DNA of 64,000 nucleotides from IMG/VR virus record IMGVR_UViG_3300029258_003331. One strand, given 5' to 3'. This document shows, piece by piece, positions 13,384-57,499 of the stretch. Below the pieces are notes generated by a model, which saw nothing but the letters and a program-made list of their open reading frames with translations, was not told the DNA's origin and did no database searches. Position numbers and translations under genes: made by a program. Numbering within the stretch: position 1 is the first letter of the stretch; the number at the start of each line of letters is the position of its first letter. This DNA is from a virus. Lineage: Duplodnaviria > Heunggongvirae > Uroviricota > Caudoviricetes.

Positions 13384-13563
13384 ATGAAGCCGGATTATGA
13401 GTTGTGCAAGAAACATTGCCGCCGTGCCCACAGGTGTTTCAAAAGGAAGCACTTGCGAGAGGCAGATGGCACAGTGAGAGTTATCGCGAGGAAACCGGAG
13501 GAATTGCCGTCCTGGTGTCCTTTCGTGCTTGAACACCTGATGAAGCGAACGCCGGGCTCGTGA
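13384..13563 (+). CDS. Small Cys-rich protein (59 aa) ending …SWCPFVLEHLMKRTPGS; paralogue of 15662..15850
   Basis: ATG 6-7 nt after the TGATATAAT -10 box, so likely leaderless. Shares the CPF(V/L)LEHLM C-terminal signature with 15662..15850. Confidence 0.55.
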   Translation: MKPDYELCKKHCRRAHRCFKRKHLREADGTVRVIARKPEELPSWCPFVLEHLMKRTPGS

Positions 13564-13732: not shown

Positions 13733-13945
13733 CTACTCTGTTTCTGTTTCTGCGTGGAGCCCAGAGAGCATCGCGGCGACCGGAATCATACATTCGTTGG
13801 TTTCGCCGCACCTGTTTGCGCCTCGGATGATTTTACTCGCCTCGTTCCGTTCGTAGATACCGGCTCCGCTGAGTTCGGTTGAGTATCCCCGCGAGTTGGG
13901 AGCCCACCAGGCATTGTGCTCGATGCTCCAAATGAGATATTTCAT
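13733..13945 (-). CDS. Hypothetical protein (70 aa)
   Basis: ATGA overlap with the upstream L7/L12-like gene, suggesting translational coupling. Confidence 0.5.
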   Translation of the reverse strand: MKYLIWSIEHNAWWAPNSRGYSTELSGAGIYERNEASKIIRGANRCGETNECMIPVAAMLSGLHAETETE

Positions 13946-14289
13946 GTGATTTGTTCTTTCAGTTCAAGCGCTTTTGCAAAAGCCACGGTGAGATGCGGCA
14001 GCACGGAAGGCATTTCTCGCTGAGTTGCCAATTGGATGGCTGCCTTGATGTGTTGGATAATGTCGTCACTTGGGTCGTAGGTGGAGAAGGTGAAGCCGGC
14101 GTTGTGGAGTGTTGTTGTCGCTCGGGTGGCTTTTTCCTTGTTGAGGGAGATTTGCCGTGTTTCACCGGCTGCGACCGAGTCAATGATGAGTTTTGAATCC
14201 TTGAGCCCCAGATTAGTGACTTCGCGGAGCGCTTTGATGGCTGGTATGCGGTTCTCGTTTGTGGGGACAGCCGTGATGACGAGTTCCAT
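13942..14289 (-). CDS. Ribosomal protein L7/L12 C-terminal-domain-like protein (115 aa)
   Basis: AAAGGAAAGAACC then ATG. IPAIKALREVTNLGLKDSKLIIDSVAAGE aligns with the bL12 CTD consensus ([23 protein letters not shown]). Lacks the bL12 N-terminal dimerisation and hinge region. Confidence 0.7.
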   Translation of the reverse strand: MELVITAVPTNENRIPAIKALREVTNLGLKDSKLIIDSVAAGETRQISLNKEKATRATTTLHNAGFTFSTYDPSDDIIQHIKAAIQLATQREMPSVLPHLTVAFAKALELKEQIT

Positions 14290-14320
14290 GGTTCTTTCCT
14301 TTCTAAAAGGCTTCAAATTG

Positions 14321-14671
14321 TCAGGATACGCCTTTGGGCGGTTCCAGGAAGAACGGTGTTTCTGCGGTGGACGCCTCAATTGCGGATTTCAGACCGGCAA
14401 GCGTTCCCGTCTCTATTCCGCAGTGTTCCCGGGGACAGCCGTCTGTGGCGGATTGACAGTGCTCCACAAGTAAGCATTGTTCGCAATTTTGGTTTTCCGG
14501 TTCGTATTCGCCGTAGCATTGTGCAATGGATTGTATGTGCTGCACAAACGCGCGGCTTTTGCGGCAACTTTGCTGGAATCCGCAGTCCTCGCAGGAAAAA
14601 CGGCTGTCGTAGTTACCGTGGCATTTGGGTACGGTTTCCGGGGCTGTTTTCGTGTCAGGCATCTTGGTCAT
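14321..14671 (-). CDS. Cys-rich putative metal-binding protein (116 aa, at least 12 Cys)
   Basis: CEDCGF…C, CEQC…C…C…C clusters. Start may be internal. Confidence 0.6.
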   Translation of the reverse strand: MTKMPDTKTAPETVPKCHGNYDSRFSCEDCGFQQSCRKSRAFVQHIQSIAQCYGEYEPENQNCEQCLLVEHCQSATDGCPREHCGIETGTLAGLKSAIEASTAETPFFLEPPKGVS

Positions 14672-14900
14672 CCTCCAAAACCAGGAAAATGGCTGGCGGT
14701 GGCTCGGGCGCAGTGTCGAATTTTAGGAACTGAACCTCGATGTCGTTTGCGTTGAGAGTTGTGTCGGTGGCTTCTCCGGTTTTAGGGTCCGTGCCAAGAA
14801 TCAGAGCGCTCTCCAGAATAGGGCGAGGCGAAAACCGGGCAAGAAAGCCCTGCGTTTCGGAGTGGAGAAAAGCCTCTTGTGTAATGTTATCACGTTCCAT
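14655..14900 (-). CDS. Hypothetical small acidic protein (81 aa)
   Basis: In-operon ORF with short overlaps on both sides. Confidence 0.45.
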   Translation of the reverse strand: MERDNITQEAFLHSETQGFLARFSPRPILESALILGTDPKTGEATDTTLNANDIEVQFLKFDTAPEPPPAIFLVLEDDQDA

Positions 14901-15366
14901 AGAAGACGCATACCAGGTGTTTTGAGTTATCGGTTAGTGCCATGGCTTCCATCAGTCCCAGCAACCACCGAAAGCGGCGATAATCGCTGTTCTGCACGTC
15001 AGTGCGCACCGCCTCTAAGACATCCTTGAAAGGAACCAAGACAAGTGGATCGCCATAGTTGTCTTCAGAAAACTCGGTACACCTGTCACTGTGATAAAAA
15101 TACACAAACTCATTTTGATTTTCTTCGGTGACCTTAAGGTACTTATCATGCAACAAGTCGAGGTTGCTATAGTCGATTTTGCTAAGGTCAAGATGCACAG
15201 CAGGCATCAAGTATCGTTGCATACGCCCCGTCTTGATTGGGTTTCCGGCTTTATCCTTTTTATATGGATACCCAGACCCATCTTCATATGGGTTAGTCAA
15301 ATCTTTTGCCAGTTCTGGTACAGGATCTCCAAGGAAACCTATAACAATGTGCGTTTCATATCCCAT
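14890..15366 (-). CDS. Hypothetical protein (158 aa)
   Basis: ATG 15366 after AAAGGGTAAAACC. Composition looks like a globular protein. Confidence 0.7.
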   Translation of the reverse strand: MGYETHIVIGFLGDPVPELAKDLTNPYEDGSGYPYKKDKAGNPIKTGRMQRYLMPAVHLDLSKIDYSNLDLLHDKYLKVTEENQNEFVYFYHSDRCTEFSEDNYGDPLVLVPFKDVLEAVRTDVQNSDYRRFRWLLGLMEAMALTDNSKHLVCVFYGT

Positions 15367-15379
15367 GGTTTTACCCTTT

Positions 15380-15547
15380 CTAAGCATTGACCAGTTTCTT
15401 GGCTACACCACTCCCAAACTTCATTTCCTTTCTGTCCAGCGGTTGGATGAGCCTGCAGCCTGTGAGGGAGTAGATGTTTTCGAGCGTACCGTCGCAATGC
15501 ACATCCCGGATTTGTTTGTTGCGAACGTCAATCAGCACGGCTTTCAT
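15380..15547 (-). CDS. Small protein (55 aa, MKAVLIDVRNKQIRDVHCDG…)
   Basis: Strong AAGGAGG RBS 7 nt before ATG. GACCGGTTATAAGG promoter-like motif 20 nt upstream. Below the table threshold. Confidence 0.5.
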   Translation of the reverse strand: MKAVLIDVRNKQIRDVHCDGTLENIYSLTGCRLIQPLDRKEMKFGSGVAKKLVNA

Positions 15548-15661: not shown

Positions 15662-15850
15662 ATGGAAAGTCAAGTCCACCACAATCTTATGGTTTGCAAC
15701 AGGTGCAAAGAGGCTCGTTGGCTTCGGTGCATGAACGAGCGCCTGCGAGCGAGAGCAGAGTGTTTGAAAGCCAAGGAACCATATGACGAGCGTGATGTGC
15801 CGATAGATTGTCCGTTCTTGCTGGAACATCTCATGGAATCCGGGGCGTAA
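15662..15850 (+). CDS. Small Cys-rich protein (62 aa) ending …DCPFLLEHLMESGA; paralogue of 13384..13563
   Basis: Immediately downstream of a TTGGTATAAAATGG promoter-like element, so likely leaderless. C-terminal signature is shared with 13384..13563. Confidence 0.55.
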   Translation: MESQVHHNLMVCNRCKEARWLRCMNERLRARAECLKAKEPYDERDVPIDCPFLLEHLMESGA

Positions 15851-15875: not shown

Positions 15876-15921
15876 GAAAGGAATCGTTACGGCGTTGCTT
15901 GACCACATGAAAGGGGCATCC

Positions 15922-16107
15922 ATGAAGTGCGATACTTGTGAACATTACTCGGCACAACCCAGGGAGTATTGTGGCTTCGTGGAGGGCGTGTATTGCGACG
16001 GCTGCTATATTGAATACTTGTTGTGCATACGCCAGCAACTGGAGCACGAGGTGAGCCTGACTAAAGTTAACTCTGAAATGATGAGAGAAGGTGATGAGCG
16101 TCGCTAG
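15922..16107 (+). CDS. Small Cys-rich protein (61 aa; CDTC…C…CDGC)
   Basis: AAAGGGG RBS 5 nt before ATG. TTGGTATAAT promoter 45 nt upstream. Confidence 0.5.
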   Translation: MKCDTCEHYSAQPREYCGFVEGVYCDGCYIEYLLCIRQQLEHEVSLTKVNSEMMREGDERR

Positions 16108-16465: not shown

Positions 16466-16636
16466 CATGATATTTTCTTAATATTGTGGCTTTCTGTAAG
16501 CCGCTCTGATGGTTTTTGAGTGTCTGGCGGTGTACCAGAGCCTTTTTGGCACTTGGGACGCACAGCGGGCTTCTGTAGCCTTCTGGTGAGTCTAAGAGGC
16601 ACCTTGTGAGGTCAATTTGGGAGACAGGAGAGCGAG

Positions 16637-17722
16637 ATGGCAATGCGAGACGCCTACAAGAACTTTCGTAAAGGGACGTATCTCTACAATTTCTTTGCAG
16701 AGAAGGACGTTCCGGATAGGCTGTTCGACGTCCAGGATTCTCACGGCGTCTTGCATACTATCCCCAATGAAGTTGTGGTGGAACACATCGCTCTGACTTC
16801 TGGTGGGGAGCGTAAGAAAATCGAGGACACCTTGCGCAAAATTGACTTCGCAAATGGCGATGTTAACCACTTTCTGCGGTTCCTTGCCAAAGCCATTGCC
16901 GAGAGATACGAGGGTGTTTTGCGGGCGTCGAACATTGCCGTAGCCCACGAACTGCAGGGCATTGCGTCGCTTCTTGTGACAGCCGGACAGAGGACGGCTC
17001 ACGATGTTGTCAAGTTCCAGCCGGGAGACCTTGTGAAATTCGAGGGTCGGAGTCGTAACATCTTTGAGGTGATGGGCTTCAGCGTCGAGTATGCCCTGGA
17101 AGGACCGAACCCTCGCACCGGCAAAACCGAGTACCTGTTTAGCCTCCCGCACGTAGCCCTGGGGAAGATTTTTCAGTTTGATGGTAGACCTTCCGGTAAG
17201 TACGGGCATGGCGAAGTGGGTGACAATATTGTGATGAAACGCGATTCCAACTACGGCAAAGCGGGACAGAGTTACCGCATTCGGTATGTCCATGTGAAGT
17301 ACAATCTCAAAGGAGTGAACAACAAAAAGCAGATGACCATTGGCGGCGAGAATCTTGTGAAGGCTGATGCTCCCATGCTCGACAAGAAGGGTCGTGATGC
17401 GGTTCAGGCAGCCCAGGACGAGTTTGGCGGCGTAGGTGGTCTTGTGGTGATTGACATGTACCGGCTCATGCGCGAGCGGGTGGGCAAGATTCTCAAGGTC
17501 ACACCGAAGGGCGGACTCATCGTGCAGCAGTTCGGGAGGACCCTTGCTCCTCGCAATGAACTCGACCGGGAGACTTTCAAGCCCAACTTCCAGGACAAGC
17601 TCGACAAGGTCGCATTCACAGCCGACTTGTTCCGGGGCGAGTGGGTGTGGGGGTCGAGCCGTAAGAATTTGCACGTCAAAGGTCCGTACAAGGGCGGTAC
17701 CGTTACGAGTCTGTTGGACTGA
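16637..17722 (+). CDS. Hypothetical protein (361 aa)
   Basis: GGGAGACAGGAGAGCGAG then ATG. Diverse composition. Preferred over the antisense 394-aa R/L/H-rich shadow ORF 16592..17776. Confidence 0.85.
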   Translation: MAMRDAYKNFRKGTYLYNFFAEKDVPDRLFDVQDSHGVLHTIPNEVVVEHIALTSGGERKKIEDTLRKIDFANGDVNHFLRFLAKAIAERYEGVLRASNIAVAHELQGIASLLVTAGQRTAHDVVKFQPGDLVKFEGRSRNIFEVMGFSVEYALEGPNPRTGKTEYLFSLPHVALGKIFQFDGRPSGKYGHGEVGDNIVMKRDSNYGKAGQSYRIRYVHVKYNLKGVNNKKQMTIGGENLVKADAPMLDKKGRDAVQAAQDEFGGVGGLVVIDMYRLMRERVGKILKVTPKGGLIVQQFGRTLAPRNELDRETFKPNFQDKLDKVAFTADLFRGEWVWGSSRKNLHVKGPYKGGTVTSLLD

Positions 17723-17732
17723 GGAGAAAACC

Positions 17733-18116
17733 ATGAACAAGAGACGGGTAGCACGAGATCTGGTGCAATTGGCCAAGAACCTGACGGCCTACAAAGGCAC
17801 CAAGACCTATTTGTCGAAAGGTGACGGCGAATTCCACATCCAGATTCGCGGGCACGTGAGGGCAACATTGGGGCGCAGCCGGACAGTCAAAGGAATCATA
17901 GACACCGAGGAAGACATCAAAAAGGTGGCCATGTCCGAGGTGAAAGGATTGAGTCCCGAGGCGAAGGATATTTACTGGGCGAAGACGGCGCTGGTCATTC
18001 CGAAAGAAGGTCTGTATGTTATCCTGAACGGCATTGTCGAGTTTGCCGACGAGAACAGCGGAGAGGAAATTCTTCGGGACAGGGGCTACGAGAAGACAGG
18101 CCCGCTGAAAGGCTGA
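17733..18116 (+). CDS. Helix-family small protein (127 aa)
   Basis: GAGGAGAAAACC then ATG. N-terminus MNKRRVARDLVQLAKNLTAY. Confidence 0.8.
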   Translation: MNKRRVARDLVQLAKNLTAYKGTKTYLSKGDGEFHIQIRGHVRATLGRSRTVKGIIDTEEDIKKVAMSEVKGLSPEAKDIYWAKTALVIPKEGLYVILNGIVEFADENSGEEILRDRGYEKTGPLKG

Positions 18117-33389: not shown

Positions 33390-35252
33390 ATGAGCGCCAC
33401 AACGACGAAACACAGCAAGAAGAATGCTCGCTATGTTGAGCGGCAAAAACAACTCAAAGCCGTTCAGGAGGTCGAGCGTGCCCTCAAAGTAATCATCCCA
33501 CACATGTGCCGGGACGGTAGGGTAACCATCAAGCATGTGGCTCCCGGCAATCCCCCTTGTGCCAATGTGAAAACCCGCACCATTTTCATGCCGCCACTCA
33601 ACGGTCTACAGGATCTTATGTTGGCACGGGCTTACTACTATCACGAGGTACTCCACATTGCTCACAGCCATCTCTCGGAGTCTCAGTGGGAGGAAATCCG
33701 TGAGAACAAGGCTCTGAAGACAATTTTGAATTCTCTGGATGATTACCGAATTGAAGCGAAGGGTGCAAGAAAATACGAAGGCTGCCGGGTGGTTTTCAAC
33801 TGGAGCCGGGACTACCACAACAAGAAAATTGCAGGACAAGTGCAACGTGGGGAAACCGTTGAGATTCCACTTTGGGAAGCCGCATGCGCCATGGAGATAA
33901 TGTGCAAGGGGGCGCGGTTGGCATGGCGCGCTGAGGGGCTCGCGGCAGAGTACATCAGCGCTGCCTATGAGACATACCAAGAGGTGCGTGGAGCAGAATC
34001 CACAGGGGATTGCCTGGTGATCGCCAGAAAGATTTACGACATCATTAAGGCAATAAAGAAAGAGCAGCAAGGACAAGGGGAACAAGGGGAACAAAAGGGA
34101 CAACAAGAGGGACAACAAGAGGGACAACAAGAGGGACAACAAGAGGGACAACAAGAGGGACAACAAGAGGGACAACAAGGGAAGGAGACAGCAACAGCGG
34201 ACCCCAGGGAAGGCGAGAGTACAGACAACGAAACAAGTGGACAGGTCGAAAACACGAAGGATGATCGAACAGACGAAGAGGTTGCTGGTGCGCTTGAGAA
34301 GGAGGCAGAAGGCGAGGACCTGGGAGAATTCCTGCGGCGCGAACTTGAAGCGCAAATCGACGAAGTTCCCGAGGCAGATCGTCGCTATCGCAGTATTAGG
34401 GAAAACGACGCATACGAGGTGCCCGATAGCACCAGTGTGGCTCAGTTCAACGCAGTCCGCGAAGAAGTGGCAAACAGCATTATGGGTATCAGTCGAGCAC
34501 TGGACCAGGCTCTCCGCACACTTAGTCGCTCTCGTAAGGAACAATACATGCGACGCGGAAAACTTGACATGCGGCGGCTTGTGGATGCGGCAGCCGGATT
34601 GGACAAACGGGTCTTTTACCAGGTTCGAGACGGTGAGAAATTGGATACAGCGGTAGTCATTATTGTGGACGAAAGCGCTTCGATGTCTGCTTCACGATAC
34701 GCCATGCAGCGGCTTGTTGCGGCGTTGGGGGAGACCCTGAACAAACTGGGGGTTCGCTTTGAGATTGTCGGAAGTACCACGAAATACTTTGGCGGCGAAA
34801 TTCCCAGAAAGTTACTAATTCCGGGCTATGATCGAACAAACCCTCTCAGGTTGCGTATTTATAAGACCTTCACCGAGAGATGGGAAGCCGTCAAAACACG
34901 CATAGTTCGCATTTCAGCCTTCAAGCACAATGTGGACTGTGAGGCAATTGAGATGGCTGTCGCGCGCTTGTCTACGTGCCGAGAGCGCCGTAGGATCATT
35001 TTCAGTTTGAGCGATGGTTGTCCCGAAGCAGGACATAACAACGAGCAGGAAATGGGTCAGTTTCTCAAGTACGTTTGTGAGCGCAGTCGAAGAGCGGGAG
35101 TCGAGGTATATGGGTTCGGTGTGCGCACAATAGAACCGAGGAAGTTTTACGGGAGGGATTATTTTGTCTACCTGAAAGATGAGCGACAAATGGGACAAGA
35201 TTTCTTCCGTCGGTTTGCGGACATCATCACAAGAGGTCGTTTCAGGGCGTAG
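33390..35252 (+). CDS. Putative metallopeptidase (HExxH) – vWA-domain protein, CobT/DUF2201-like (620 aa)
   Basis: GAGACCGGTTATAGG motif 29 nt upstream. YYYHEVLHIAHSH in the N-domain. (QEGQ)n low-complexity linker. VVIIVDESASMSAS MIDAS motif in the C-terminal vWA fold. Confidence 0.9.
   Translation: MSATTTKHSKKNARYVERQKQLKAVQEVERALKVIIPHMCRDGRVTIKHVAPGNPPCANVKTRTIFMPPLNGLQDLMLARAYYYHEVLHIAHSHLSESQWEEIRENKALKTILNSLDDYRIEAKGARKYEGCRVVFNWSRDYHNKKIAGQVQRGETVEIPLWEAACAMEIMCKGARLAWRAEGLAAEYISAAYETYQEVRGAESTGDCLVIARKIYDIIKAIKKEQQGQGEQGEQKGQQEGQQEGQQEGQQEGQQEGQQEGQQGKETATADPREGESTDNETSGQVENTKDDRTDEEVAGALEKEAEGEDLGEFLRRELEAQIDEVPEADRRYRSIRENDAYEVPDSTSVAQFNAVREEVANSIMGISRALDQALRTLSRSRKEQYMRRGKLDMRRLVDAAAGLDKRVFYQVRDGEKLDTAVVIIVDESASMSASRYAMQRLVAALGETLNKLGVRFEIVGSTTKYFGGEIPRKLLIPGYDRTNPLRLRIYKTFTERWEAVKTRIVRISAFKHNVDCEAIEMAVARLSTCRERRRIIFSLSDGCPEAGHNNEQEMGQFLKYVCERSRRAGVEVYGFGVRTIEPRKFYGRDYFVYLKDERQMGQDFFRRFADIITRGRFRA
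34064..34181 (+). repeat. 12-bp coding tandem repeat (GGGACAACAAGA) x7, preceded by degenerate copies
   Basis: Encodes the (QEGQ)n linker of the HExxH-vWA protein. Confidence 0.85.
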
Positions 35253-36933: not shown

Positions 36934-38169
36934 ATGCCCACAAAAGCCAGTCTTACAGATGAGGAGCAACGAGTAGTCGAGGCAGTCAAAAAACTCGTTG
37001 CTGAACACGGAACTGTTGAGGTGGGGTGGGACGATCCTGTTGTTGCCGACCACTTTGACGTACTCCGGAAATCCAAAGTTCGTCGCTGTCTTGTCAAAGG
37101 GGCAGACAGCATCGTTGTGGACATTTACGACACGACGAAAACTGTCCGGCTCTTTGCCATCTCGGGAACTCACTCAGAGGGGCGACAAAAAGAACGAGGC
37201 AAGAAAAGGACGTCCAAAAAGAAGATTCAGCACACCTACATCAAGCCACGCCTGCATCAGCGCATGAAAAAACTCATTCAGAGCCCTTCGTCCTTGGTGG
37301 TGTGCGGCGTGGGTCCGACCGGGTGTGGGAAGACCACACATATGCGGCTGATGGCTGAAGAATTGAACATGGAACTAGAACTCATCAACTGCAAGCGGGA
37401 CATGGACACCGCTTCGTTTATTGGCGAGAAAACCATTGAGGTAGACGAGAAGACGGAACAGAGTATCATCAAATTTCTCGAAGGACCTGTCATCCGCGCC
37501 ATGAAGTGCGGTCTTGACGAAAAAGGCAACGAAGTTGGGAATCCAGCCCTCCTGGTTGTTGACGAATTTCCGATGATACCGAGTTGGATTGCCATAGGGT
37601 TGAATAACCTGCTTGACAACTTCAGTCCACGGCGGCAGATCCGGGTTGACGCTGATGGCGCTCGGGTAGTAACGAGCCACAGTGGATTCCGGATTGTGTT
37701 GCTGGGCAATACGATTGGGAGGGGGATCCTCAGTACGCGGGATGCAGGCTACGTGGCGCAGGGAGACGCACTAGACGACAGTACCCTTGACCGTATTGAC
37801 GCGATTTTTCACTACGGGTATAACCGCCGCGCTGAAGAATCGATCTTGCGAGAAAAGATCGGCAATGACAGCATGGTCCGCAAGTTGCTCCGGTTCCGTG
37901 ACGCCATACGGAATCTCAAACGACAGGGAGAAGTGACAACCCCATTCTCAACGCGCCTCATCGTGAGCGTTTGCGACCTCTACCGGGAATACGACGAAGA
38001 TATCGCTTGGGCGTTGCATGACGCGGTCTTTGGGAAACTTGTGGATGACAGTCCAGATCCGAATGTTCCCGGCGGCGAACTGGCTGTGTACAATGAGCAG
38101 GCAATGCAAATCTTCGGTATTGACGTGCTGAAGAGTGCGGCGGACGATTCCGACATGGATTACGTTTGA
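36934..38169 (+). CDS. AAA+ ATPase, MoxR/CobS-like (411 aa)
   Basis: GAGACCGGTTATAG motif 31 nt upstream. Walker A VCGVGPTGCGKTT. Walker B LLVVDEFPM. Confidence 0.9.
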   Translation: MPTKASLTDEEQRVVEAVKKLVAEHGTVEVGWDDPVVADHFDVLRKSKVRRCLVKGADSIVVDIYDTTKTVRLFAISGTHSEGRQKERGKKRTSKKKIQHTYIKPRLHQRMKKLIQSPSSLVVCGVGPTGCGKTTHMRLMAEELNMELELINCKRDMDTASFIGEKTIEVDEKTEQSIIKFLEGPVIRAMKCGLDEKGNEVGNPALLVVDEFPMIPSWIAIGLNNLLDNFSPRRQIRVDADGARVVTSHSGFRIVLLGNTIGRGILSTRDAGYVAQGDALDDSTLDRIDAIFHYGYNRRAEESILREKIGNDSMVRKLLRFRDAIRNLKRQGEVTTPFSTRLIVSVCDLYREYDEDIAWALHDAVFGKLVDDSPDPNVPGGELAVYNEQAMQIFGIDVLKSAADDSDMDYV

Positions 38170-40463: not shown

Positions 40464-40941
40464 AACAGCGAGTGTGGATGATGATGTGACGAGGTTGGTC
40501 GATGAGGGGGCGCAACTCGACGCAGAAAGCAAAAAGCACCAAGCGCGCTTGAAAGAAATTAAGGAGGAATTGACAGGCGCTGTTTCTTTTGAGGAAGGCG
40601 AGAGCAGCGTGCGCGTAGCCGGAGAGAACGACAGCGCGGTGGTTACGTGTCGGAAGTCCGTGAGTCTTGGTTTCGACGGGGCAGAGGATGAGGAACGGTT
40701 CAGGAACGTCTTTGAAGGGGAAAAATTCAGCACTGCAGTCGGTAGCCAAGTTGTTGTTCGCGTAGCACCTGGGAAGATGGAGTCCCTTTTGGACTTTCTC
40801 GGTGAAAACAACTACGGATACGAGGTAAACTGGAGTCTGAGGGCGCAGGATGTAGTGGCGGTTAACTCTCCGGAGGCGAAGGCTATCTTGGAGAAGGCAA
40901 CGAAGGTAAAAACGACGACTGCGGTCAAATTTGAGTGGTAA
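40450..40941 (+). CDS. Hypothetical protein (163 aa)
   Basis: ATG 40450 overlaps the upstream gene by 14 nt. Confidence 0.6.
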   Translation: MAKIRTASVDDDVTRLVDEGAQLDAESKKHQARLKEIKEELTGAVSFEEGESSVRVAGENDSAVVTCRKSVSLGFDGAEDEERFRNVFEGEKFSTAVGSQVVVRVAPGKMESLLDFLGENNYGYEVNWSLRAQDVVAVNSPEAKAILEKATKVKTTTAVKFEW

Positions 40942-40969
40942 CAACCGGAAAGTGAATGAAAGGAAGGGA

Positions 40970-42271
40970 ATGGGAACGAACGACGACAAGCGGCTCAACG
41001 AGTACGAGCGCACCTACGAAGGCTGCTATGGTCTACAGGTCAAGGCGGATAGGCTTGTTGACTTTCTGACTACGAATTTTCGCTTTAACGACATCGAAGA
41101 AGAAGCCGGCAATCCGCGCATTGCTCAGTGTGTGTGGGGACATCCAGGGACGGGCAAGACCTCAATTATCAAGCAACTCCGCGAAACGCCGGTAGAATGG
41201 CGTGGAAAACAATACCCTGGATGGGACGTGCATGACGTTCCGATTGCGCAGTTCGAGGAGATGGGCGACCTTCACGGCATTCCTATGGATAGCCTCATGA
41301 TGCGCCGGAGACGAGACGGCGATTCCGAGAGCGAAGAACAATGGGTGCCGCAGAACGAGATGACCATTGCGGCGTTCCGAGACGACGGCTGGGAAGTAGA
41401 CACCAGCATTCAGCCCCGTACCATCATGGCTCCTCCTGACTGGGTTCCTTTGAAACCAGGACCTGCGATTTTGCTGTTGGATGACTGGAATCGCGCCAGC
41501 ATTCGCATCATCAAGGGTATCATGCAACTTCTGCAAAACTACGGCATGGTATCGTGGTCGCTCCCGGCGGGCTGCAATATTGTTTTGACTGGCAACCCGG
41601 ACGAACAGAATTACCTGGTCACAACCATTGACAAAGCCATTCTAACGCGCATCGAGCACGTCACGCTGGTTGAAGATGCCAAACTGTGGGCAGAGTGGGC
41701 AGCGAAGCAAAAACTTGACCATCGCGGGATTTCGTGGGTGTTATATCAGCCCGAAATGATGCACGGCAAGGAACGGACGAATCTGCGGACGCTTTCTCAT
41801 TTCTTTCGGAAACTGACAGCCATTGGCAACCTTCAGAACGAGGACGCTCGGAAGCAGGCAATGCTCCATGCTCATTCGTTGTTGGACGAAGAAACTGTCA
41901 CCGCTTTTATCGTCTTCTGCACTCGCAAGATGGAGGACATAGTCGAGCCCGAAGATATTTTGGATGGTCGGACGGACGTAGCCGCACGGTTGTGTGAACT
42001 GATGTCCAGCGACAAACACGAACCGCGTAGTGACATTCTCGGTGTCATGATAGAGCGCTTGTTCGGGACCATGGTTGACCCAAGCACCAAGCAAACTCCC
42101 GAACGCATTGAGAATTTTCAGAGGTTTATCACCAACCAGCACATCCCTGAAGATTGTCGTCATGCGCTTTGCAATCGTCTCTCCAGGCGTGCAGATGCGG
42201 ACGGTAGAAATCAGAAGTGGCTTCTCAATAATTCAGCATTGCGCGGGTTGATCTTAGAAATGTTTGACTAA
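40970..42271 (+). CDS. AAA+ ATPase, MoxR-like (433 aa)
   Basis: GAAAGGAAGGGA then ATG. Walker A VWGHPGTGKTS. Walker B ILLLDDWNRAS. Confidence 0.9.
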   Translation: MGTNDDKRLNEYERTYEGCYGLQVKADRLVDFLTTNFRFNDIEEEAGNPRIAQCVWGHPGTGKTSIIKQLRETPVEWRGKQYPGWDVHDVPIAQFEEMGDLHGIPMDSLMMRRRRDGDSESEEQWVPQNEMTIAAFRDDGWEVDTSIQPRTIMAPPDWVPLKPGPAILLLDDWNRASIRIIKGIMQLLQNYGMVSWSLPAGCNIVLTGNPDEQNYLVTTIDKAILTRIEHVTLVEDAKLWAEWAAKQKLDHRGISWVLYQPEMMHGKERTNLRTLSHFFRKLTAIGNLQNEDARKQAMLHAHSLLDEETVTAFIVFCTRKMEDIVEPEDILDGRTDVAARLCELMSSDKHEPRSDILGVMIERLFGTMVDPSTKQTPERIENFQRFITNQHIPEDCRHALCNRLSRRADADGRNQKWLLNNSALRGLILEMFD

Positions 42272-46265: not shown

Positions 46266-47579
46266 ATGATGCCCGATATTAACGTGAAAAGAGAGGTGAT
46301 GCGGGGCTCGGTCGATTTGATTCGGCACAAGTTGTTTTACGGGCACATACTTCAACAGATACCCAAAGTGTATAATGCCGAAAAATGGGGAATACCGACC
46401 ATGGGAGTCGGGAAGGAAGCCAATGATCTCTTGATAAAACTTTGTGTAAACGAGCAGTTCGTGCGGGAAATTTGGAAAAGAGCCGCAAACAGCGAGCAGG
46501 CCAGACAATGGCTAGGCTGTATCCTGGAGCACGAGGTTTTACACATTGTCTTTGACCACCTGAGTCTCCAATTCTACGATAAAACACGCGGCGCTGTGGC
46601 TGTGGATTTGGCGGTCAATTCCTACCTTCCTGAGCAGCACCTCCCTCCTGGTTGTTGTTTTCCGAATGACTACAACCTTGCGCAGGGCAAAAGCGCCATG
46701 TGGTACTACACGCACTTGGTGGATAATGAGCACTACCAAAAGCAGTTGGCGGATGAAACACTGGCCGTTCATATGGGAAATCAAAAACAACAAAGCAAAG
46801 GAAAAGGCGGAAAACAGGGAATAGGCGGAAAACAGGGAAAACAGGAAGAACAGGGAAAAGGTGGAAAACAGGGAAAAGGTGGTGATCTGGATATGTCTGG
46901 GTCGCATGAAATGTGGGACCGAGCGGCGCAGGACCCATTGCTGAAGGAATTTTGCAAAGACCTCGTCAGCAAAGCCCGGGAACTCGTTGGTAAGGAGTAC
47001 GGTGACATACCAGGGGCGGTAATCGAGCAGATAGAGGATTTGTTCAAGAAAAGACGACCCATTGTCCCCTGGAATAAGGTGCTCCGGAACTTCGCCGCGA
47101 GTGCTACGGAATCAAGTTTGGATTACACGATGAAACGCGTAAGTAAGCGTTTCGGTACGCGACCGGGCACGCGAAAAGAAGACGTGCTCAACCTTGCCGT
47201 AGCCGTCGATACAAGCGGGTCAATTAGCGATTCGCAGTTGGTGTTGTTCTTTAATGAGGTTCGCTGGATATGGCGCAATGGTTCTATTGTGACCGTCTAC
47301 GAAGCCGACGCCGATATCCAGGCGGTCTACAAATTCAAGGGTAAGTTCACCGGAGAGATACATGGTCGCGGCGGTACGGACTTGGAACCGGTCTTGAAGG
47401 AAACAGAAGGAAAATACGACGCGCTTATTTATTTCACCGATTTTTATGCGCCTCACATCGACAGGCGGTATAATATTCCTATCTTGTGGGTGCTGACTAC
47501 CGAACTGACGCGTGACCGGTTTCCTTACAAGTGGGGAAGATACATCAAGATTGAAGATAATAAGGCAAAAGTTGCCTGA
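46266..47579 (+). CDS. Second putative metallopeptidase (HExxH) – vWA protein, DUF2201-like (437 aa)
   Basis: ILEHEVLHIVFDHL N-domain. (GKQG)n linker. VAVDTSGSISDSQ MIDAS in the C-terminal vWA. Same architecture as 33390..35252. Confidence 0.9.
   Translation: MMPDINVKREVMRGSVDLIRHKLFYGHILQQIPKVYNAEKWGIPTMGVGKEANDLLIKLCVNEQFVREIWKRAANSEQARQWLGCILEHEVLHIVFDHLSLQFYDKTRGAVAVDLAVNSYLPEQHLPPGCCFPNDYNLAQGKSAMWYYTHLVDNEHYQKQLADETLAVHMGNQKQQSKGKGGKQGIGGKQGKQEEQGKGGKQGKGGDLDMSGSHEMWDRAAQDPLLKEFCKDLVSKARELVGKEYGDIPGAVIEQIEDLFKKRRPIVPWNKVLRNFAASATESSLDYTMKRVSKRFGTRPGTRKEDVLNLAVAVDTSGSISDSQLVLFFNEVRWIWRNGSIVTVYEADADIQAVYKFKGKFTGEIHGRGGTDLEPVLKETEGKYDALIYFTDFYAPHIDRRYNIPILWVLTTELTRDRFPYKWGRYIKIEDNKAKVA
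46795..46900 (+). repeat. Degenerate 12-bp coding repeat (GGAAAACAGGGA)n
   Basis: Encodes the (GKQG)n linker of the second HExxH-vWA protein. Confidence 0.7.
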
Positions 47580-52384: not shown

Positions 52385-52990
52385 ATGGCTGCTGACGATT
52401 TCAGCCGGGACGAGGGTTTTGACGAGGGACCGACGACCGAACTTGTAGTTGCCAGTCCCGAGACTAACCTGCCGACCGAAACTCCCCCGCCGGCTACCAA
52501 CATGAGGGAGCATCGGGCAAACCTGGTGCGTGACTACCACCACGGGGCTTCCTCGCTGGCTGAGAAATTGCGCCTCCAGGGTCGGGATAACAGCGAAGCC
52601 ATGGTTATGGCTATCGTGGCTGAGATTATCCAGGAAACGGATCATCTCCTCGGGAATGAGTTGGTAGCCACTGAGGACGGCGAATTACGAGACGCTTCGG
52701 TTATCTCTACAAAGCGTGCAGAGGTATTGGATAGGGCGCTCAAGGCGGTACAGACAAAACTGGTTTTCGACCGTGACCATGGCATTGACGTGGAGAGCCC
52801 AGCCATGCGGGTTATCTTCAAATTCTTCATGTCCAAGGTGAGACATGTGTTCAAACTTCTCAAGTACAGTGACGAGGCTTCCGACACTTTCTTTCGGACG
52901 TTTGCGAGTGTCATGGATGCATGGGAAGGTGAACTAAAGACGGAATTGCAAGGTAGTTCGGTGTTGAATCCAGAGAAGAACCAGCGATGA
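52385..52990 (+). CDS. Hypothetical protein directly upstream of TerL; candidate terminase small subunit (201 aa)
   Basis: Assigned from position only. ATGA overlap with TerL. Confidence 0.6.
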   Translation: MAADDFSRDEGFDEGPTTELVVASPETNLPTETPPPATNMREHRANLVRDYHHGASSLAEKLRLQGRDNSEAMVMAIVAEIIQETDHLLGNELVATEDGELRDASVISTKRAEVLDRALKAVQTKLVFDRDHGIDVESPAMRVIFKFFMSKVRHVFKLLKYSDEASDTFFRTFASVMDAWEGELKTELQGSSVLNPEKNQR

Positions 52991-54828
52991 CTAAAAAAAA
53001 CGACTTCATGGACGAACTCACCGAGGAGTTTCTTTCCGGAAACACGACGGATGTAGCCGACGTGATTACGTTTGTGGAGGCTCCATGGGGTCTCAATCTG
53101 ACGCTTTTCCCGGTCCAAAAGTGCGTACTCAAGGTGTATTACGGGCTCCCATTAGATAATCAGGAACGTAGCATCCAGGTCCCGAATATCATCAATGACA
53201 AGATACTCTACGAATTTACCGAGGTTGAGTTCCTGAAGTGGCTTTATGAGGAAGGTCGTTGCAACAGCCGAGAAATCATCGAGGCTCCGTATACCGAACT
53301 CATTCTGGTCATGGGCAGGCGAAGTGGCAAGTCAACAATAGCCTCTTGTATCTCTTGCTACGAGGTGTACAAACTCGTCAAAAGGGGCGACCCTTCGGCT
53401 TTCTACGGGTTCCCCCCCGACACCACTGTCGCCATCACGAACGTTGCGCCGACTGATGACCAAGCCAGCATTGTCTTCAATATGCTGCAGAAGAACGTTC
53501 TCGGTTGCCCTTTCTTGCGTGACCGGATAGTGAATCAAACGCTGACCTATTTCAACGTGCAAACTGATTCTGATCGCAACCTTCCGAGTAAAAAGCGCCG
53601 GGCTAGCATCATGTCCTTGGCTGGTGGTTGTGCTTCTAACAGCCTGCGCGGGCATAACAATATCGTGGTCGTGATGGACGAGATGGCGCACTTCATCGAC
53701 AACAACGGTCGATTTTCTGGCTCCGAGGTTTACAAGGCTCTGAAACCCTCCATTGGCTCGTTCAAGGGCGACGGCAAGATGGTAGGTATCAGTTCTCCCT
53801 ATGCCAAATACGGACAGTTTTGGGACTTGTATGTTGATAGTTTCAATCAGTGTGAAAATACTATCATGTTTCAGATGTATTCATCCCTCGTCAATCCAAC
53901 CATTCCGTCTGCGTTTCTCCGTGCGGAACGTCAGAGGGATCGCATTGGCTTCATGACCGAGTACGCTGGTGAGTTCAGCGATAAGGTCACAAGTTGGGTT
54001 GATGACGAAGATAAATTCAAAGCGTGCATCGTTAGAGGTCGTCCCAAGCCGGTGCGCGGACAGACGGGAACAGACTATTTCATGGGTGTTGACCTGGGCG
54101 TCAAGAACGACGGCACAGCAATTGTCATTTGTCACCGCGAACAGGGCATCAATCGCCGGGGGAAGGTGTTTGCCGGCACTCCCTCACGCATTATCGTGGA
54201 TTGGGCGCAAGTCTGGTTCTCGGGCTCCTCTGACGTGTGGGAGGTTTCCAACAACATCTATAAGGGTTGCAATAAATATGCCGAACACGACGTGATTCCA
54301 GTGGCTCTTATTGCCGAAGAGATTAAGAATTTGTGTCGCTGGTTTCCAATCAAGTCTGGGTGGTTTGATCAATGGAATGGATATTCGCTTCTGGAAATCC
54401 TGCACTCCATGGGCTTGAAGCAATTTCGCATGGAGCAAGTGACAGACAGGATGAACAGCGACACCTATCAACTGTTCAAGACTTTGTATAGTGAACAGAT
54501 GATCGAGTTTTACGATGATGAAACGCTGGAATCCGAGATTCTAGGGTTGGAGGCTGAACGCAAATCCAAAGCCAGGATAGAAGTGCGGGCTCCTAACAAG
54601 CGAGGTGCGCACGATGACCTCGCCGATGCTTGCGCCCGAGCCATTTTTGAGGCGTATGGTGCTGACGGTCCAAAAAACACGAATCTGACAGGAGGAGCCG
54701 GCGCAGCGGCAATTGGAAGTCGTGGAATGACAATGGCGATGAAAAATCACCAACGAGCGCAGTCCAGAATGCACGGCGCGCATCCGAGGAGGGTAGAAAG
54801 AAGCCACACGCGGACGCGATTTGTTTAG
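52987..54828 (+). CDS. terL: Terminase large subunit (613 aa)
   Basis: Walker A VMGRRSGKST. Walker B VVVMDEMAH. RNaseH-like nuclease Asp residues (GVDLGVKNDGTAIV, GAHDDLADA). Confidence 0.9.
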   Translation: MTKKNDFMDELTEEFLSGNTTDVADVITFVEAPWGLNLTLFPVQKCVLKVYYGLPLDNQERSIQVPNIINDKILYEFTEVEFLKWLYEEGRCNSREIIEAPYTELILVMGRRSGKSTIASCISCYEVYKLVKRGDPSAFYGFPPDTTVAITNVAPTDDQASIVFNMLQKNVLGCPFLRDRIVNQTLTYFNVQTDSDRNLPSKKRRASIMSLAGGCASNSLRGHNNIVVVMDEMAHFIDNNGRFSGSEVYKALKPSIGSFKGDGKMVGISSPYAKYGQFWDLYVDSFNQCENTIMFQMYSSLVNPTIPSAFLRAERQRDRIGFMTEYAGEFSDKVTSWVDDEDKFKACIVRGRPKPVRGQTGTDYFMGVDLGVKNDGTAIVICHREQGINRRGKVFAGTPSRIIVDWAQVWFSGSSDVWEVSNNIYKGCNKYAEHDVIPVALIAEEIKNLCRWFPIKSGWFDQWNGYSLLEILHSMGLKQFRMEQVTDRMNSDTYQLFKTLYSEQMIEFYDDETLESEILGLEAERKSKARIEVRAPNKRGAHDDLADACARAIFEAYGADGPKNTNLTGGAGAAAIGSRGMTMAMKNHQRAQSRMHGAHPRRVERSHTRTRFV

Positions 54829-55483: not shown

Positions 55484-57499
55484 ATGGCGAAGAGGAAAAC
55501 ACCGGTGAAGAGAAGAACCCCGCAGAGAAAACGCACAGCGACGCTTCGGGACGCGGCAGTAGAACAGGCATTGTCCGAAGCCTCTGCGCGAACTGATGAC
55601 GCTATTGGTGGCATTCCCTCCCCGGGACTCCAGCGTGGACCGGTAAATGATGTCAAGGCACGCATTGCTGCTGTCCGCGAAAAGAACGGTTTAATCGCTT
55701 CTGGGCTTCCGAGAATGCGTACTGCCGGAATGATGATGAGTCAATCCACGGGGATGGATGGCCTTTGGGGCAGTTCGTCTCTCGATGCATATCACACAAG
55801 TTACGCCTCTGGAAATACGCTCTATGGAGGCGGCGTTCGTGATGTTCCGACCTATTTTGTGATGATGAACCAGCAAAACGGGGGCGTTCTCTACTGGCCC
55901 GTTAGCCTCCGTGAGAAGTACGAATGGTATAGGTACTTCTCAAGAACGGATGCTTATGTTGGACGGGCGTTGGAGTTGCTGTCTGACCTGCCGATGAGCA
56001 AAATCACACTGAACATGCCCAAGATACCGAAGAAAGGACTCAAAAACGAAATCTATGAATTCTTTCAGGACATGTGCGAGAATTTGAATCTTTTTGAGCG
56101 CCTGCAGGAAATCTTGTGGGAATGGAACATGATCGGAAACTCCTTCCTCTTTCATGAGTGGTCCGCGAAAGAGAAGCGATGGAACAAAATTGTGATGCTG
56201 CCGCCGGAAGAGGTAAATTGTTTTACCTATCCGTTCAGTGATAACGCACGCATTGAGTATCGTCCTGAAAAACTGATGCAAATTGTCAAGGCATCGGCTG
56301 ATGTGACAGGTTACGATGTGCCGCAGGAAGACAAGGCGGCATGTAGTCGAGTTGAAATGATGAAAACACTGGTCAAGAATATCCCTCCCGAGGTCGTGAA
56401 GATGATAAGGGAGCAGGATTGTATCGTCATGGATACCGATCCCATGGCTGGAGGCAGACCTGGTTCCTTTGCGTATCATTTTGCTCGTCGTCGCAGTCCG
56501 TACATGGATTTGGGTGCCTCCGTGTTAGAACGCGTCTTGGTCCCCATGCTGCAGAAGGAAAACTACCGCTACACGCAACTTGCCTTGGCTACGAGAAACA
56601 TGACGCCGAAAAACAAGATCTCGGCTCCAGGTTTGAATGAGTCGGAAATTGAACAATTGCGGGCTCAAATCGACTTGTCCTACATGGACCCTGAATACTC
56701 TGTAGTCACGAACTACGAGTGGGATTGGGAGCAGATTGGCGCTGATGCTCGCTTGCTTGATCTTGCCAGCGAATATGAGATGATCGAGAATCAGGTATTC
56801 GCTGGGTTGGGGGTGACGAGGGAGTTGTTGACTGGCGAAGGCACGTATAGCGGCAATCGGATTACTGTTGAGATCCTGAACACTATCTTTTTGCTCACTC
56901 GTCAGATGCTTCAGCGTTATGTGGAGCGGAGTTTGTTCCGGCCGGTGGCAGAGGCGCACAAGTGGTATGAGGACACGAGATACGGCGTGCGCAAATATTG
57001 GTATCCGCGAGTTGCCTTTAACCGCTTGAGCATTAGGGATAATCAGGAGGTCTTCGAGAACCTGTTTCAACTCTACCAGAAAGGTTCTATGGATATCGAC
57101 GTGCTCTACGAGTTGTTCAATCTTGATAGTGATTACATTCATGAAAAAATCAAGGAGCAACTTTTCACGGTCAAGGACCCGAATTTCAATCGTACCATTG
57201 AGAACGTGGATGACGAGGTGGGTCGTGCGCTTGTGGAGCGTTCCGACGTCGTGGACAAGGTTGGCAAGTACCTGGGTCTCAAAGTGTCCGCGCCCCAAGG
57301 TGAGGGCGAGGGTGAATTCGGAGAGAGCGGATTCGGTGGAGGCTTTGAGGGTGGGTTCGGTGCGGAGGAACCTGCGGCAGAAGAGGAATCTGCGTTGGAT
57401 GAGATGGCAACGAGCATTGCAGAGGAATTGCCGGAGGACGCGGACGAGGGAGAAGTCAGGGAAGTGGTTGAGGAGTTGGCGGGGGCTGGAGTGTCGTGA
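55484..57499 (+). CDS. Putative portal protein (671 aa)
   Basis: Immediately downstream of TerL. Its size and acidic G/E-rich C-terminus are typical of portals. Assignment is from position and composition, not motifs. Confidence 0.8.
   Translation: MAKRKTPVKRRTPQRKRTATLRDAAVEQALSEASARTDDAIGGIPSPGLQRGPVNDVKARIAAVREKNGLIASGLPRMRTAGMMMSQSTGMDGLWGSSSLDAYHTSYASGNTLYGGGVRDVPTYFVMMNQQNGGVLYWPVSLREKYEWYRYFSRTDAYVGRALELLSDLPMSKITLNMPKIPKKGLKNEIYEFFQDMCENLNLFERLQEILWEWNMIGNSFLFHEWSAKEKRWNKIVMLPPEEVNCFTYPFSDNARIEYRPEKLMQIVKASADVTGYDVPQEDKAACSRVEMMKTLVKNIPPEVVKMIREQDCIVMDTDPMAGGRPGSFAYHFARRRSPYMDLGASVLERVLVPMLQKENYRYTQLALATRNMTPKNKISAPGLNESEIEQLRAQIDLSYMDPEYSVVTNYEWDWEQIGADARLLDLASEYEMIENQVFAGLGVTRELLTGEGTYSGNRITVEILNTIFLLTRQMLQRYVERSLFRPVAEAHKWYEDTRYGVRKYWYPRVAFNRLSIRDNQEVFENLFQLYQKGSMDIDVLYELFNLDSDYIHEKIKEQLFTVKDPNFNRTIENVDDEVGRALVERSDVVDKVGKYLGLKVSAPQGEGEGEFGESGFGGGFEGGFGAEEPAAEEESALDEMATSIAEELPEDADEGEVREVVEELAGAGVS

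Follow-up and report, generated by a model that had tools for sequence, protein, structure and literature searches.

Proteins built around the C-terminal domain (CTD) found in ribosomal stalk protein bL12 (L7/L12, encoded by rplL) have been reported for seven cultivated phages as well as numerous viral contigs (Mizuno et al. 2019, PMC6375957). The bL12 domain makes up the whole protein in Ralstonia phage RSB3 (BAN92321, 98 amino acids (aa)), DFL12phi1 (106 aa) and roseophage DSS3P2 (107 aa), whereas other copies sit inside polypeptides that reach 724 aa, and the unrelated genomic contexts of these domains imply repeated acquisition (PMC6375957). One peptide of the bL12-domain protein of Salmonella phage FSL SP-076 was detected in purified 70S ribosomes, and affinity purification of ribosomes with a tagged viral bL12 failed (PMC6375957). 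Phage bL12 genes are now routinely annotated (PMC11934525, PMC12509530), as in the case of gp258/259 of Streptomyces phage Riptide (PMC12509530). Here we analyse a gene for a 115-aa protein at positions 13942-14289 (minus strand) of a 64,000-nucleotide (nt) stretch, referred to below as the window, from the tailed-phage record IMGVR_UViG_3300029258_003331 of IMG/VR (Caudoviricetes). A sequence-only reading of the window had picked out this gene as encoding a homologue of the bL12 CTD, and had correctly remarked that viral bL12 genes were reported before (PMC6375957).

We conclude that this is almost certainly an accessory gene of a novel phage, encoding a stand-alone bL12 CTD that lacks the N-terminal domain (NTD) and hinge by which bL12 is tethered to uL10, and that carries a unique C-terminal helical hairpin. 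The class of phage bL12-CTD proteins is already known, and the 115-aa protein is a new, highly divergent member of it with a C-terminal element of its own. As to function, the sequence leads us to favour, with a probability of roughly 0.4, a soluble module that would work off the stalk by binding a translational GTPase or some other normal partner of the bL12 CTD, with self-association or a second binding site contributed by the hairpin.

Among the described proteins, ORF10 of Ralstonia phage RSB3 (BAN92321) provides an instructive comparison. Both are small tailed-phage proteins that start at strand beta1 of the CTD, RSB3 ORF10 likewise having no NTD, and both match the Pfam family PF00542 with nearly the same score (37.5 bits for RSB3 ORF10, 37.2 bits here), although the match covers profile positions 6-40/67 in RSB3 ORF10 and 5-61/67 in the 115-aa protein. 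RSB3 ORF10 is encoded among small early genes; the gene studied here also lies among small unannotated genes, which are probably early or accessory. Beyond the domain itself, no sequence relationship to phage bL12-CTD proteins was detected by tblastn against INPHARED or in IMG/VR, and the BFVD comparison yielded neighbours at the fold level only. These phage structural neighbours are many, range from 64 to 430 aa, and include the crAss-like cr1_1, cr126_1, cr50_1 and cr10_1 as well as Klebsiella phage KpCHEMY26, Ralstonia phage RSJ5 and Vibrio phage Vp_R1. The 115-aa protein is set apart from the known phage proteins by its own 44-residue C-terminal hairpin and by an AAGET loop where bL12 has SAP.

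Identity and fold of the domain

The open reading frame (ORF) begins with an ATG at 14289-14287 and ends with a TGA at 13944-13942, exactly where the sequence-only reading had placed it, and the peptide that had been aligned with bL12, IPAIKALREVTNLGLKDSKLIIDSVAAGETRQISLNKEKA, corresponds to residues 15-54 of the product. PF00542 (Ribosomal_L12), which models the bL12 CTD, is matched with E=3.8e-9, and the score given above exceeds the curated gathering cut-off of 25.9 bits. When the sequences of the PDB were searched with phmmer, the best 10 matches were all bL12 chains, six of them with E-values of 8e-4 to 5e-3, and an eleventh bL12 chain took the last of the 14 places. From the single sequence, AlphaFold2 predicted a beta-alpha-alpha-beta-alpha-beta order followed by two helices, with a predicted local distance difference test score (pLDDT) of 71; the order was kept when a 56-row alignment of family domains was supplied, with the pLDDT at 83.9 and the predicted template modelling score (pTM) at 0.61. 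The predicted elements are strands at residues 2-7, 45-48 and 67-71, and helices at residues 11-25, 29-40, 51-63, 73-90 and 94-114.

Structural comparison gave the same answer. In a Foldseek search of the PDB the top 12 matches were bL12 CTDs, each with a probability of 1.00, and their target-normalised template modelling (TM) scores spanned 0.38-0.76, the lowest being those against full-length bL12 chains; against isolated or ribosome-bound CTD chains the scores were 0.56-0.76. By prediction, structural search and alignment alike, residues 2-71 (14077-14286, minus strand) comprise a complete bL12 CTD fold. They are collinear with 55 family domains and with the Escherichia coli CTD, to which they are about 27-29% identical in the Foldseek alignment. 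Chance is far from sufficient to account for the resemblance between the 115-aa protein and the bL12 CTD. The homology proposed in the sequence-only reading is thus upheld by PF00542, phmmer, AlphaFold2 and Foldseek in agreement. That reading had named a profile search, in which the lack of a significant bL12 match was to count against it, and a comparison with the bL12 CTD structure as ways of checking the claim; the first yielded the PF00542 match and the second bL12 CTDs in all of the top 12 places.

The next-best set of Foldseek matches consists of ClpS N-degron adaptors (PF02617), which belong to the same alpha/beta fold class and superpose with TM-scores of about 0.6. Membership of the ClpS family was considered and rejected: PF02617 gives no Pfam match at E<=10, identity is only 8-16%, and the protein carries the bL12-specific motif instead, so that the likeness is confined to the level of the fold.

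No orthologue of the 115-aa protein was found in IMG/VR, in JGI metagenome contigs or in GTDB genomes, and tblastn against INPHARED (50,697 phage records) gave no match. At the nucleotide level the window has no match among the same 50,697 records, and no related phage in which conservation could be followed, as had been proposed, emerged from the INPHARED, IMG/VR, JGI and GTDB searches. The lack of orthologues would suit a spurious ORF, or a similarity to bL12 that arose by chance, but this explanation is effectively refuted already by the PF00542 score above the curated cut-off (with its E-value of 3.8e-9), by the confident fold prediction, by the ribosome-binding site and tight packing in an operon, and by the recurrence of the same protein on eight contigs. 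Independent gene callers returned the identical 115-aa product on these public contigs (a 20-200 kb set, the longest of 132,554 bp). The ribosome-binding site, read from the sequence, is a Shine-Dalgarno-like AGGAAAG at 14293-14300 (minus strand), about 7 nt 5' of the ATG, and falls in the 31-nt gap past the stop codon of the preceding gene (14323-14321).

The missing anchor and the C-terminal tail

Bacterial bL12 has an NTD, which mediates dimerisation and uL10 binding, and a flexible Ala/Gly/Pro-rich hinge, both of which the 115-aa protein lacks. It starts at strand beta1 of the CTD; Ribosomal_L12_N gives no Pfam match at E<=10, and TIGR00855, the NCBIfam equivalog for bL12, is matched at 24.7 bits over positions 62-120/125 only and so fails its cut-off of 84.4. 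The sole in-frame extension upstream, from a TTG at 14379, would add 30 aa (MRRPPQKHRSSWNRPKAYPDNLKPFRKERT). A longer ORF with a hidden NTD was rejected, since this extension is a basic peptide unlike an NTD and overlaps the preceding gene. The sequence-only reading had already described the NTD and hinge as missing, with the reservation that a corrected start might bring a canonical NTD to light; the start at beta1, the absence of a Ribosomal_L12_N match and the nature of the extension all agree with its description. The protein and bacterial bL12 have the CTD fold and the residues of helices 4 and 5 in common, whereas they differ in charge, the CTD being basic here (isoelectric point (pI) 9.4) and acidic in E. 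coli (pI 5.1), and in the lack of an adjoining rplJ. No rplJ-rplL context is present: the gene is surrounded by small phage genes that carry no annotation, and there is no ribosomal gene in the window. Given the failure against TIGR00855 and the absence of NTD and hinge, the protein is not a canonical stalk subunit.

Nor is the protein simply a free CTD, because the domain is followed by a 44-residue C-terminal hairpin that did not figure in the sequence-only reading. This lineage-specific extension, residues 72-115 (13945-14076, minus strand), is predicted by both AlphaFold runs to form two helices (73-90 and 94-114). Neither the PDB nor Pfam yields a match for it, and in a HMMER scan of 1.84 billion representative proteins no match has a best-scoring stretch that covers it, the furthest ending at query residue 97.

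The hairpin bears on whether the protein might be incorporated into host ribosomes, replacing or supplementing bL12, with the hairpin as a substitute for the NTD on uL10. Such a role has been proposed for viral ribosomal proteins generally, the FSL SP-076 peptide was found in purified 70S ribosomes (PMC6375957), and the tail, by prediction, resembles the bL12 NTD in being a hairpin of two helices. We nevertheless regard incorporation as improbable: NTD and hinge are absent, the order of the domains would be reversed, purification of ribosomes through tagged viral bL12 failed (PMC6375957), and the similarity of the tail to three bL12 NTDs does not rise above that of shuffled sequences. The last point comes from a Smith-Waterman comparison with NTD sequences, in which the fraction of shuffles reaching the observed score was 0.46 for E. 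coli, 0.21 for Thermotoga maritima and 0.10 for Bacillus subtilis, and a circularly permuted bL12 in which the tail represents the NTD was rejected on this basis and for want of a PDB or Pfam match to the tail. By eye, DDIIQHIKAAI in the tail recalls DQIIEAVAAMS in the NTD, a likeness to which the shuffle test gives no support. A BLASTP side match raised the possibility that the tail might be a second, degenerate copy of the helix-4/5 repeat; against the family hidden Markov model it scored -1.6 bits, with only IIQHIKA aligned, which lends this candidate no support. When aligned with the protein's own CTD, the tail scores under the shuffle mean.

The factor-binding face

The helices equivalent to helices 4 and 5 of bL12, which form its translation-GTPase-binding face, were assigned to residues 11-40 (14170-14259, minus strand) by column-by-column mapping. 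The factor-contact residues are those reportedly identified in Helgstrand 2007 and Kothe 2004, which are cited in PMC6753160. The sequence taken for the E. coli CTD is in agreement with the phmmer-PDB alignment. From E. coli bL12 to the 115-aa protein, the residues of helix 4 map as K65 to R14, V66 to I15, I69 to I18, K70 to K19 and R73 to R22, and those further on as G79 to G28, L80 to L29, K81 to K30, E82 to D31 and K84 to K33. Five of the five basic residues of the face are kept (R14, K19, R22, K30 and K33), together with the hydrophobic I15, I18 and L29, and likewise G28 and D31. Judged from this alignment, almost all residues of the factor-binding face are retained. In bL12, IF2, EF-Tu, EF-G and RF3 bind at a common site that is conserved, positively charged and made up of helices 4 and 5 (PMC6753160, PMC10931766), and E. 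coli ribosomes with the K65R change are fully active (PMC6110070). The basic character of the CTD would be compatible with charge-complementary binding of factors.

Non-ribosomal relatives of the domain

The HMMER scan of representative proteins returned 287 significant matches, among which the only full-length match is the 115-aa protein itself. We inspected the best 150 of these 287 (P0002-P0150), reading ten sequences first. The best 150 are mostly non-ribosomal proteins with 2-15 matched stretches, one of them having a single stretch, and among the ten read first some consist of only the two-helix core and some are membrane-anchored. Like the 115-aa protein, these repeat proteins carry the motif I-x-x-IK-x-x-R-x-x-T-x-LGLK-[DE]-[AS]-K, often within the whole CTD fold, and the similarity of their domains to that of the 115-aa protein is at least that of true bL12. 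They differ from it in their architecture, since they are mostly multi-repeat and several of the ten have anchors or other domains, whereas the 115-aa protein has one copy and a unique tail. In single-domain comparisons the non-ribosomal proteins score 20-37 bits, with P0144 at 37 bits and P0018 at 33 bits, and the E. coli bL12 CTD scores 20.7 bits. The closer match to P0144 and P0018 than to E. coli bL12 means that the gene is not a recent capture of a host rplL.

The relatives suggest a different function, in which the domain would serve as a generic module for protein-protein interaction or scaffolding, unrelated to translation, and would bind some other host or phage target. In keeping with this, the best 150 relatives are mostly repeat proteins with up to 15 stretches, and of the ten read first some are anchored and some reduced to the two-helix core; the single domain is no closer to true bL12 (20.7 bits for E. 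coli) than to the repeats (20-37 bits); ClpS adaptors are the next-best fold matches; and there are no other translation genes nearby. We consider a scaffold of this kind somewhat less likely than the reading favoured above, as the 115-aa protein has kept the full six-element CTD fold, beyond the motif, and every basic residue of the GTPase-binding patch, and as the non-ribosomal repeats could likewise bind GTPases.

The repeat proteins form a large, apparently uncharacterised non-ribosomal population that consists of tandem bL12 CTDs or of the helix-4/5 motif alone. One example, P0007, has 15 matched stretches of the CTD or the helix-4/5 motif in 1298 aa; N-terminal membrane anchors occur in P0006, P0044 and P0124, and P0002 has a HEAT-like C-terminal region.

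The nearest relatives at the level of the domain, P0144/P0159 and P0018, have an altered loop after helix 5 ([RAV]-G-x-x-x-x-I) in common with the 115-aa protein. Their genes are part of co-directional arrays made up of small unannotated genes (contigs L022, from GCA_040384425.1, L016, L023 and L024), and the array of the P0018 contig also holds genes for a dCMP deaminase, a dNMP kinase and a nucleoside deoxyribosyltransferase. These contexts look like those of phages, with no hallmark genes in the stretches viewed. Together with the altered loop, they provide hints of a possible phage-borne subfamily of the domain.

Genomic context

The claim that the gene is phage-encoded is confirmed by a large terminase gene at 52987-54828 (PHROG E=3e-24) and a portal gene at 55484-57499 (PHROG E=8e-21) in the same window. 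Six minus-strand genes are tightly packed at 13733-15547, in a region where most genes are otherwise on the plus strand, and the bL12-like gene is the fifth of the six. According to gene calls mapped from contig L001, the cluster opens with genes for proteins of 55 aa (15380-15547), 165 aa (14890-15387) and 81 aa (14655-14900), all on the minus strand, as are those that follow. Next comes a gene for a 113-aa protein with 10 Cys (14321-14662), immediately upstream of the bL12-like gene, and the cluster closes with a gene for a 70-aa protein (13733-13945), the start of which overlaps the stop of the bL12-like gene (ATGA). Starts and stops overlap by 4-11 nt throughout (8-11 nt among the four upstream genes), except for the 31-nt gap before the bL12-like gene. 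None of the cluster neighbours has a noteworthy match in Pfam, PHROG, NCBIfam or the PDB. A short opposite-strand cluster of small unannotated genes, together with the lack of an orthologue, gives the gene its accessory character.

The sequence-only reading had described this arrangement as a minus-strand operon of small Cys-rich proteins. The packed six-gene cluster is real, but only one of its genes, that at 14321-14662, is Cys-rich; the bL12-like protein contains no Cys, and the remaining small ORFs in the vicinity that are Cys-rich run on the plus strand. Two of these, at 13384-13563 (59 aa) and 15662-15850 (62 aa), flank the cluster and have a C-terminal CPF[VL]LEHLM in common (BLASTP, 9/15 identical, pairwise E=1e-5), and they are probably paralogues; a third lies at 15895-16107. 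In the 113-aa protein, the 10 Cys are arranged as two repeats of C-x-G-x-Y-x5-6-C-x2-C-x5-C, and weak similarity to the DnaJ zinc-finger region (NCBIfam E=0.058) is all that hints at a match. The protein is likely to be a small zinc-binding one.

A functional pairing with the translationally coupled 70-aa gene was considered and rejected. The 70-aa protein belongs to a small phage protein family, with homologues 49-63% identical (P0152-P0158) on other phage-like contigs (L017-L020), and these occur in unrelated neighbourhoods, never beside a bL12-CTD gene. A neighbouring 361-aa protein has only its N-terminal domain in common with proteins of 14 viral loci, 0/14 of which have a bL12 CTD, and searches of IMG/VR with the 165-, 449- and 503-aa proteins of the neighbourhood found no relatives. 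The 361-aa gene (16637-17722, plus strand), whose N-terminus matches phrog_6004, is fully shadowed by a 394-aa antisense ORF (16592-17776, minus strand), and it is the plus-strand gene that is called on public contigs. At a GC content of 52%, this shadow ORF shows that not all long ORFs here are genes.

Across the window, the Pfam inventory of 78 candidate proteins comprises CobT/VWA, MoxR-type AAA, PD-(D/E)XK, WGR, SPFH, HhH-GPD, SMC_N, a phage metallopeptidase and others. A recurrent phage module is encoded on the plus strand at 33390-35252, 36934-38169, 40931-42271 and 46266-47579; it consists of a CobT-like VWA protein, a MoxR/CbbQ-type AAA+ ATPase, a second ATPase (phrog_1297) and a DUF2201 VWA plus metallopeptidase protein. 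In 2-kb bins the GC skew is positive throughout (0.03-0.24), consistent with mostly plus-strand genes.

Discussion

Because it has no canonical anchor, the 115-aa protein cannot be a canonical stalk subunit, and we infer that it acts off the stalk as a soluble module. A soluble head of this kind would present the conserved basic face of helices 4 and 5, the normal recruiter of IF2, EF-Tu, EF-G and RF3, and its most likely action would be to bind one such GTPase, or a different protein by which the bL12 CTD is normally recognised. The hairpin could then supply either self-association, and with it higher avidity, or a second binding site that would turn the protein into an adaptor. Translation, of the host or of the phage, would be altered as a result in the course of infection. 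On the evidence of the alignment, the role of a soluble GTPase binder is plausible; of the decoy for EF-G, EF-Tu or IF2 proposed in the sequence-only reading, the sequence supports no more than an intact factor-binding face.

Several considerations weigh against this proposal. The CTD departs from canonical bL12 at G62 (N11), G77 (N26) and D85 (L34), and after helix 5 the SAP loop of bL12 is replaced by AAGET. Hundreds of non-ribosomal multi-repeat proteins conserve the helix-4/5 motif just as well, so that its conservation may reflect folding rather than the binding of factors. The predicted tail hairpin, moreover, may cover the helix-4/5 face. Neither another translation-related family among the 78 candidate proteins nor a tRNA gene in the 64 kb was found to accompany the gene. 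Finally, ribosomes carry several bL12 CTDs each, bL12 and EF-Tu are very abundant, and the contacts between bL12 and the factors are transient. With such abundant partners and transient contacts, titration by a decoy would need very high expression or tighter binding.

A more specific variant of off-stalk action is that the anchor-less head serves as a sponge for proteins that dock on the stalk, be they translational GTPases, in which case host translation would be re-tuned, or immune nucleases captured by the stalk, such as Cami1. We regard a sponge of either kind as a long shot. Its anti-defence form, in which the free CTD titrates stalk-captured immune effectors such as Cami1, a CARF-RelE nuclease of type III CRISPR systems, seems highly improbable. 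It draws on the bL12 CTD chain of PDB 8phj (cyclic tetra-adenylate (cA4)-bound Cami1 on the 70S ribosome), which ranks third among the Foldseek matches, on the L12-mediated interaction of Cami1 (PMC12179292) and its cleavage of A-site mRNA (PMC11229360), and on the position of the gene in an accessory cluster of small genes. These points are purely circumstantial; nothing points to such a system in the host of the phage, and the 115-aa protein matches none of the known anti-defence families. If true, a Cami1-type sponge would represent a new class of anti-defence protein that works through mimicry of a ribosomal protein.

To our knowledge, genes for phage proteins with a bL12 head count as some of the commonest 'ribosomal' genes of viromes, and none of these proteins has a demonstrated function. 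The protein described here adds one divergent member to this known class and leaves the understanding of the class unchanged. Its value lies in being a clean example, with a complete CTD, an intact face, no stalk anchor and a distinct second element. These features make it a convenient test case for whether such heads bind translation GTPases in trans, and whether they intercept effectors that depend on the stalk.

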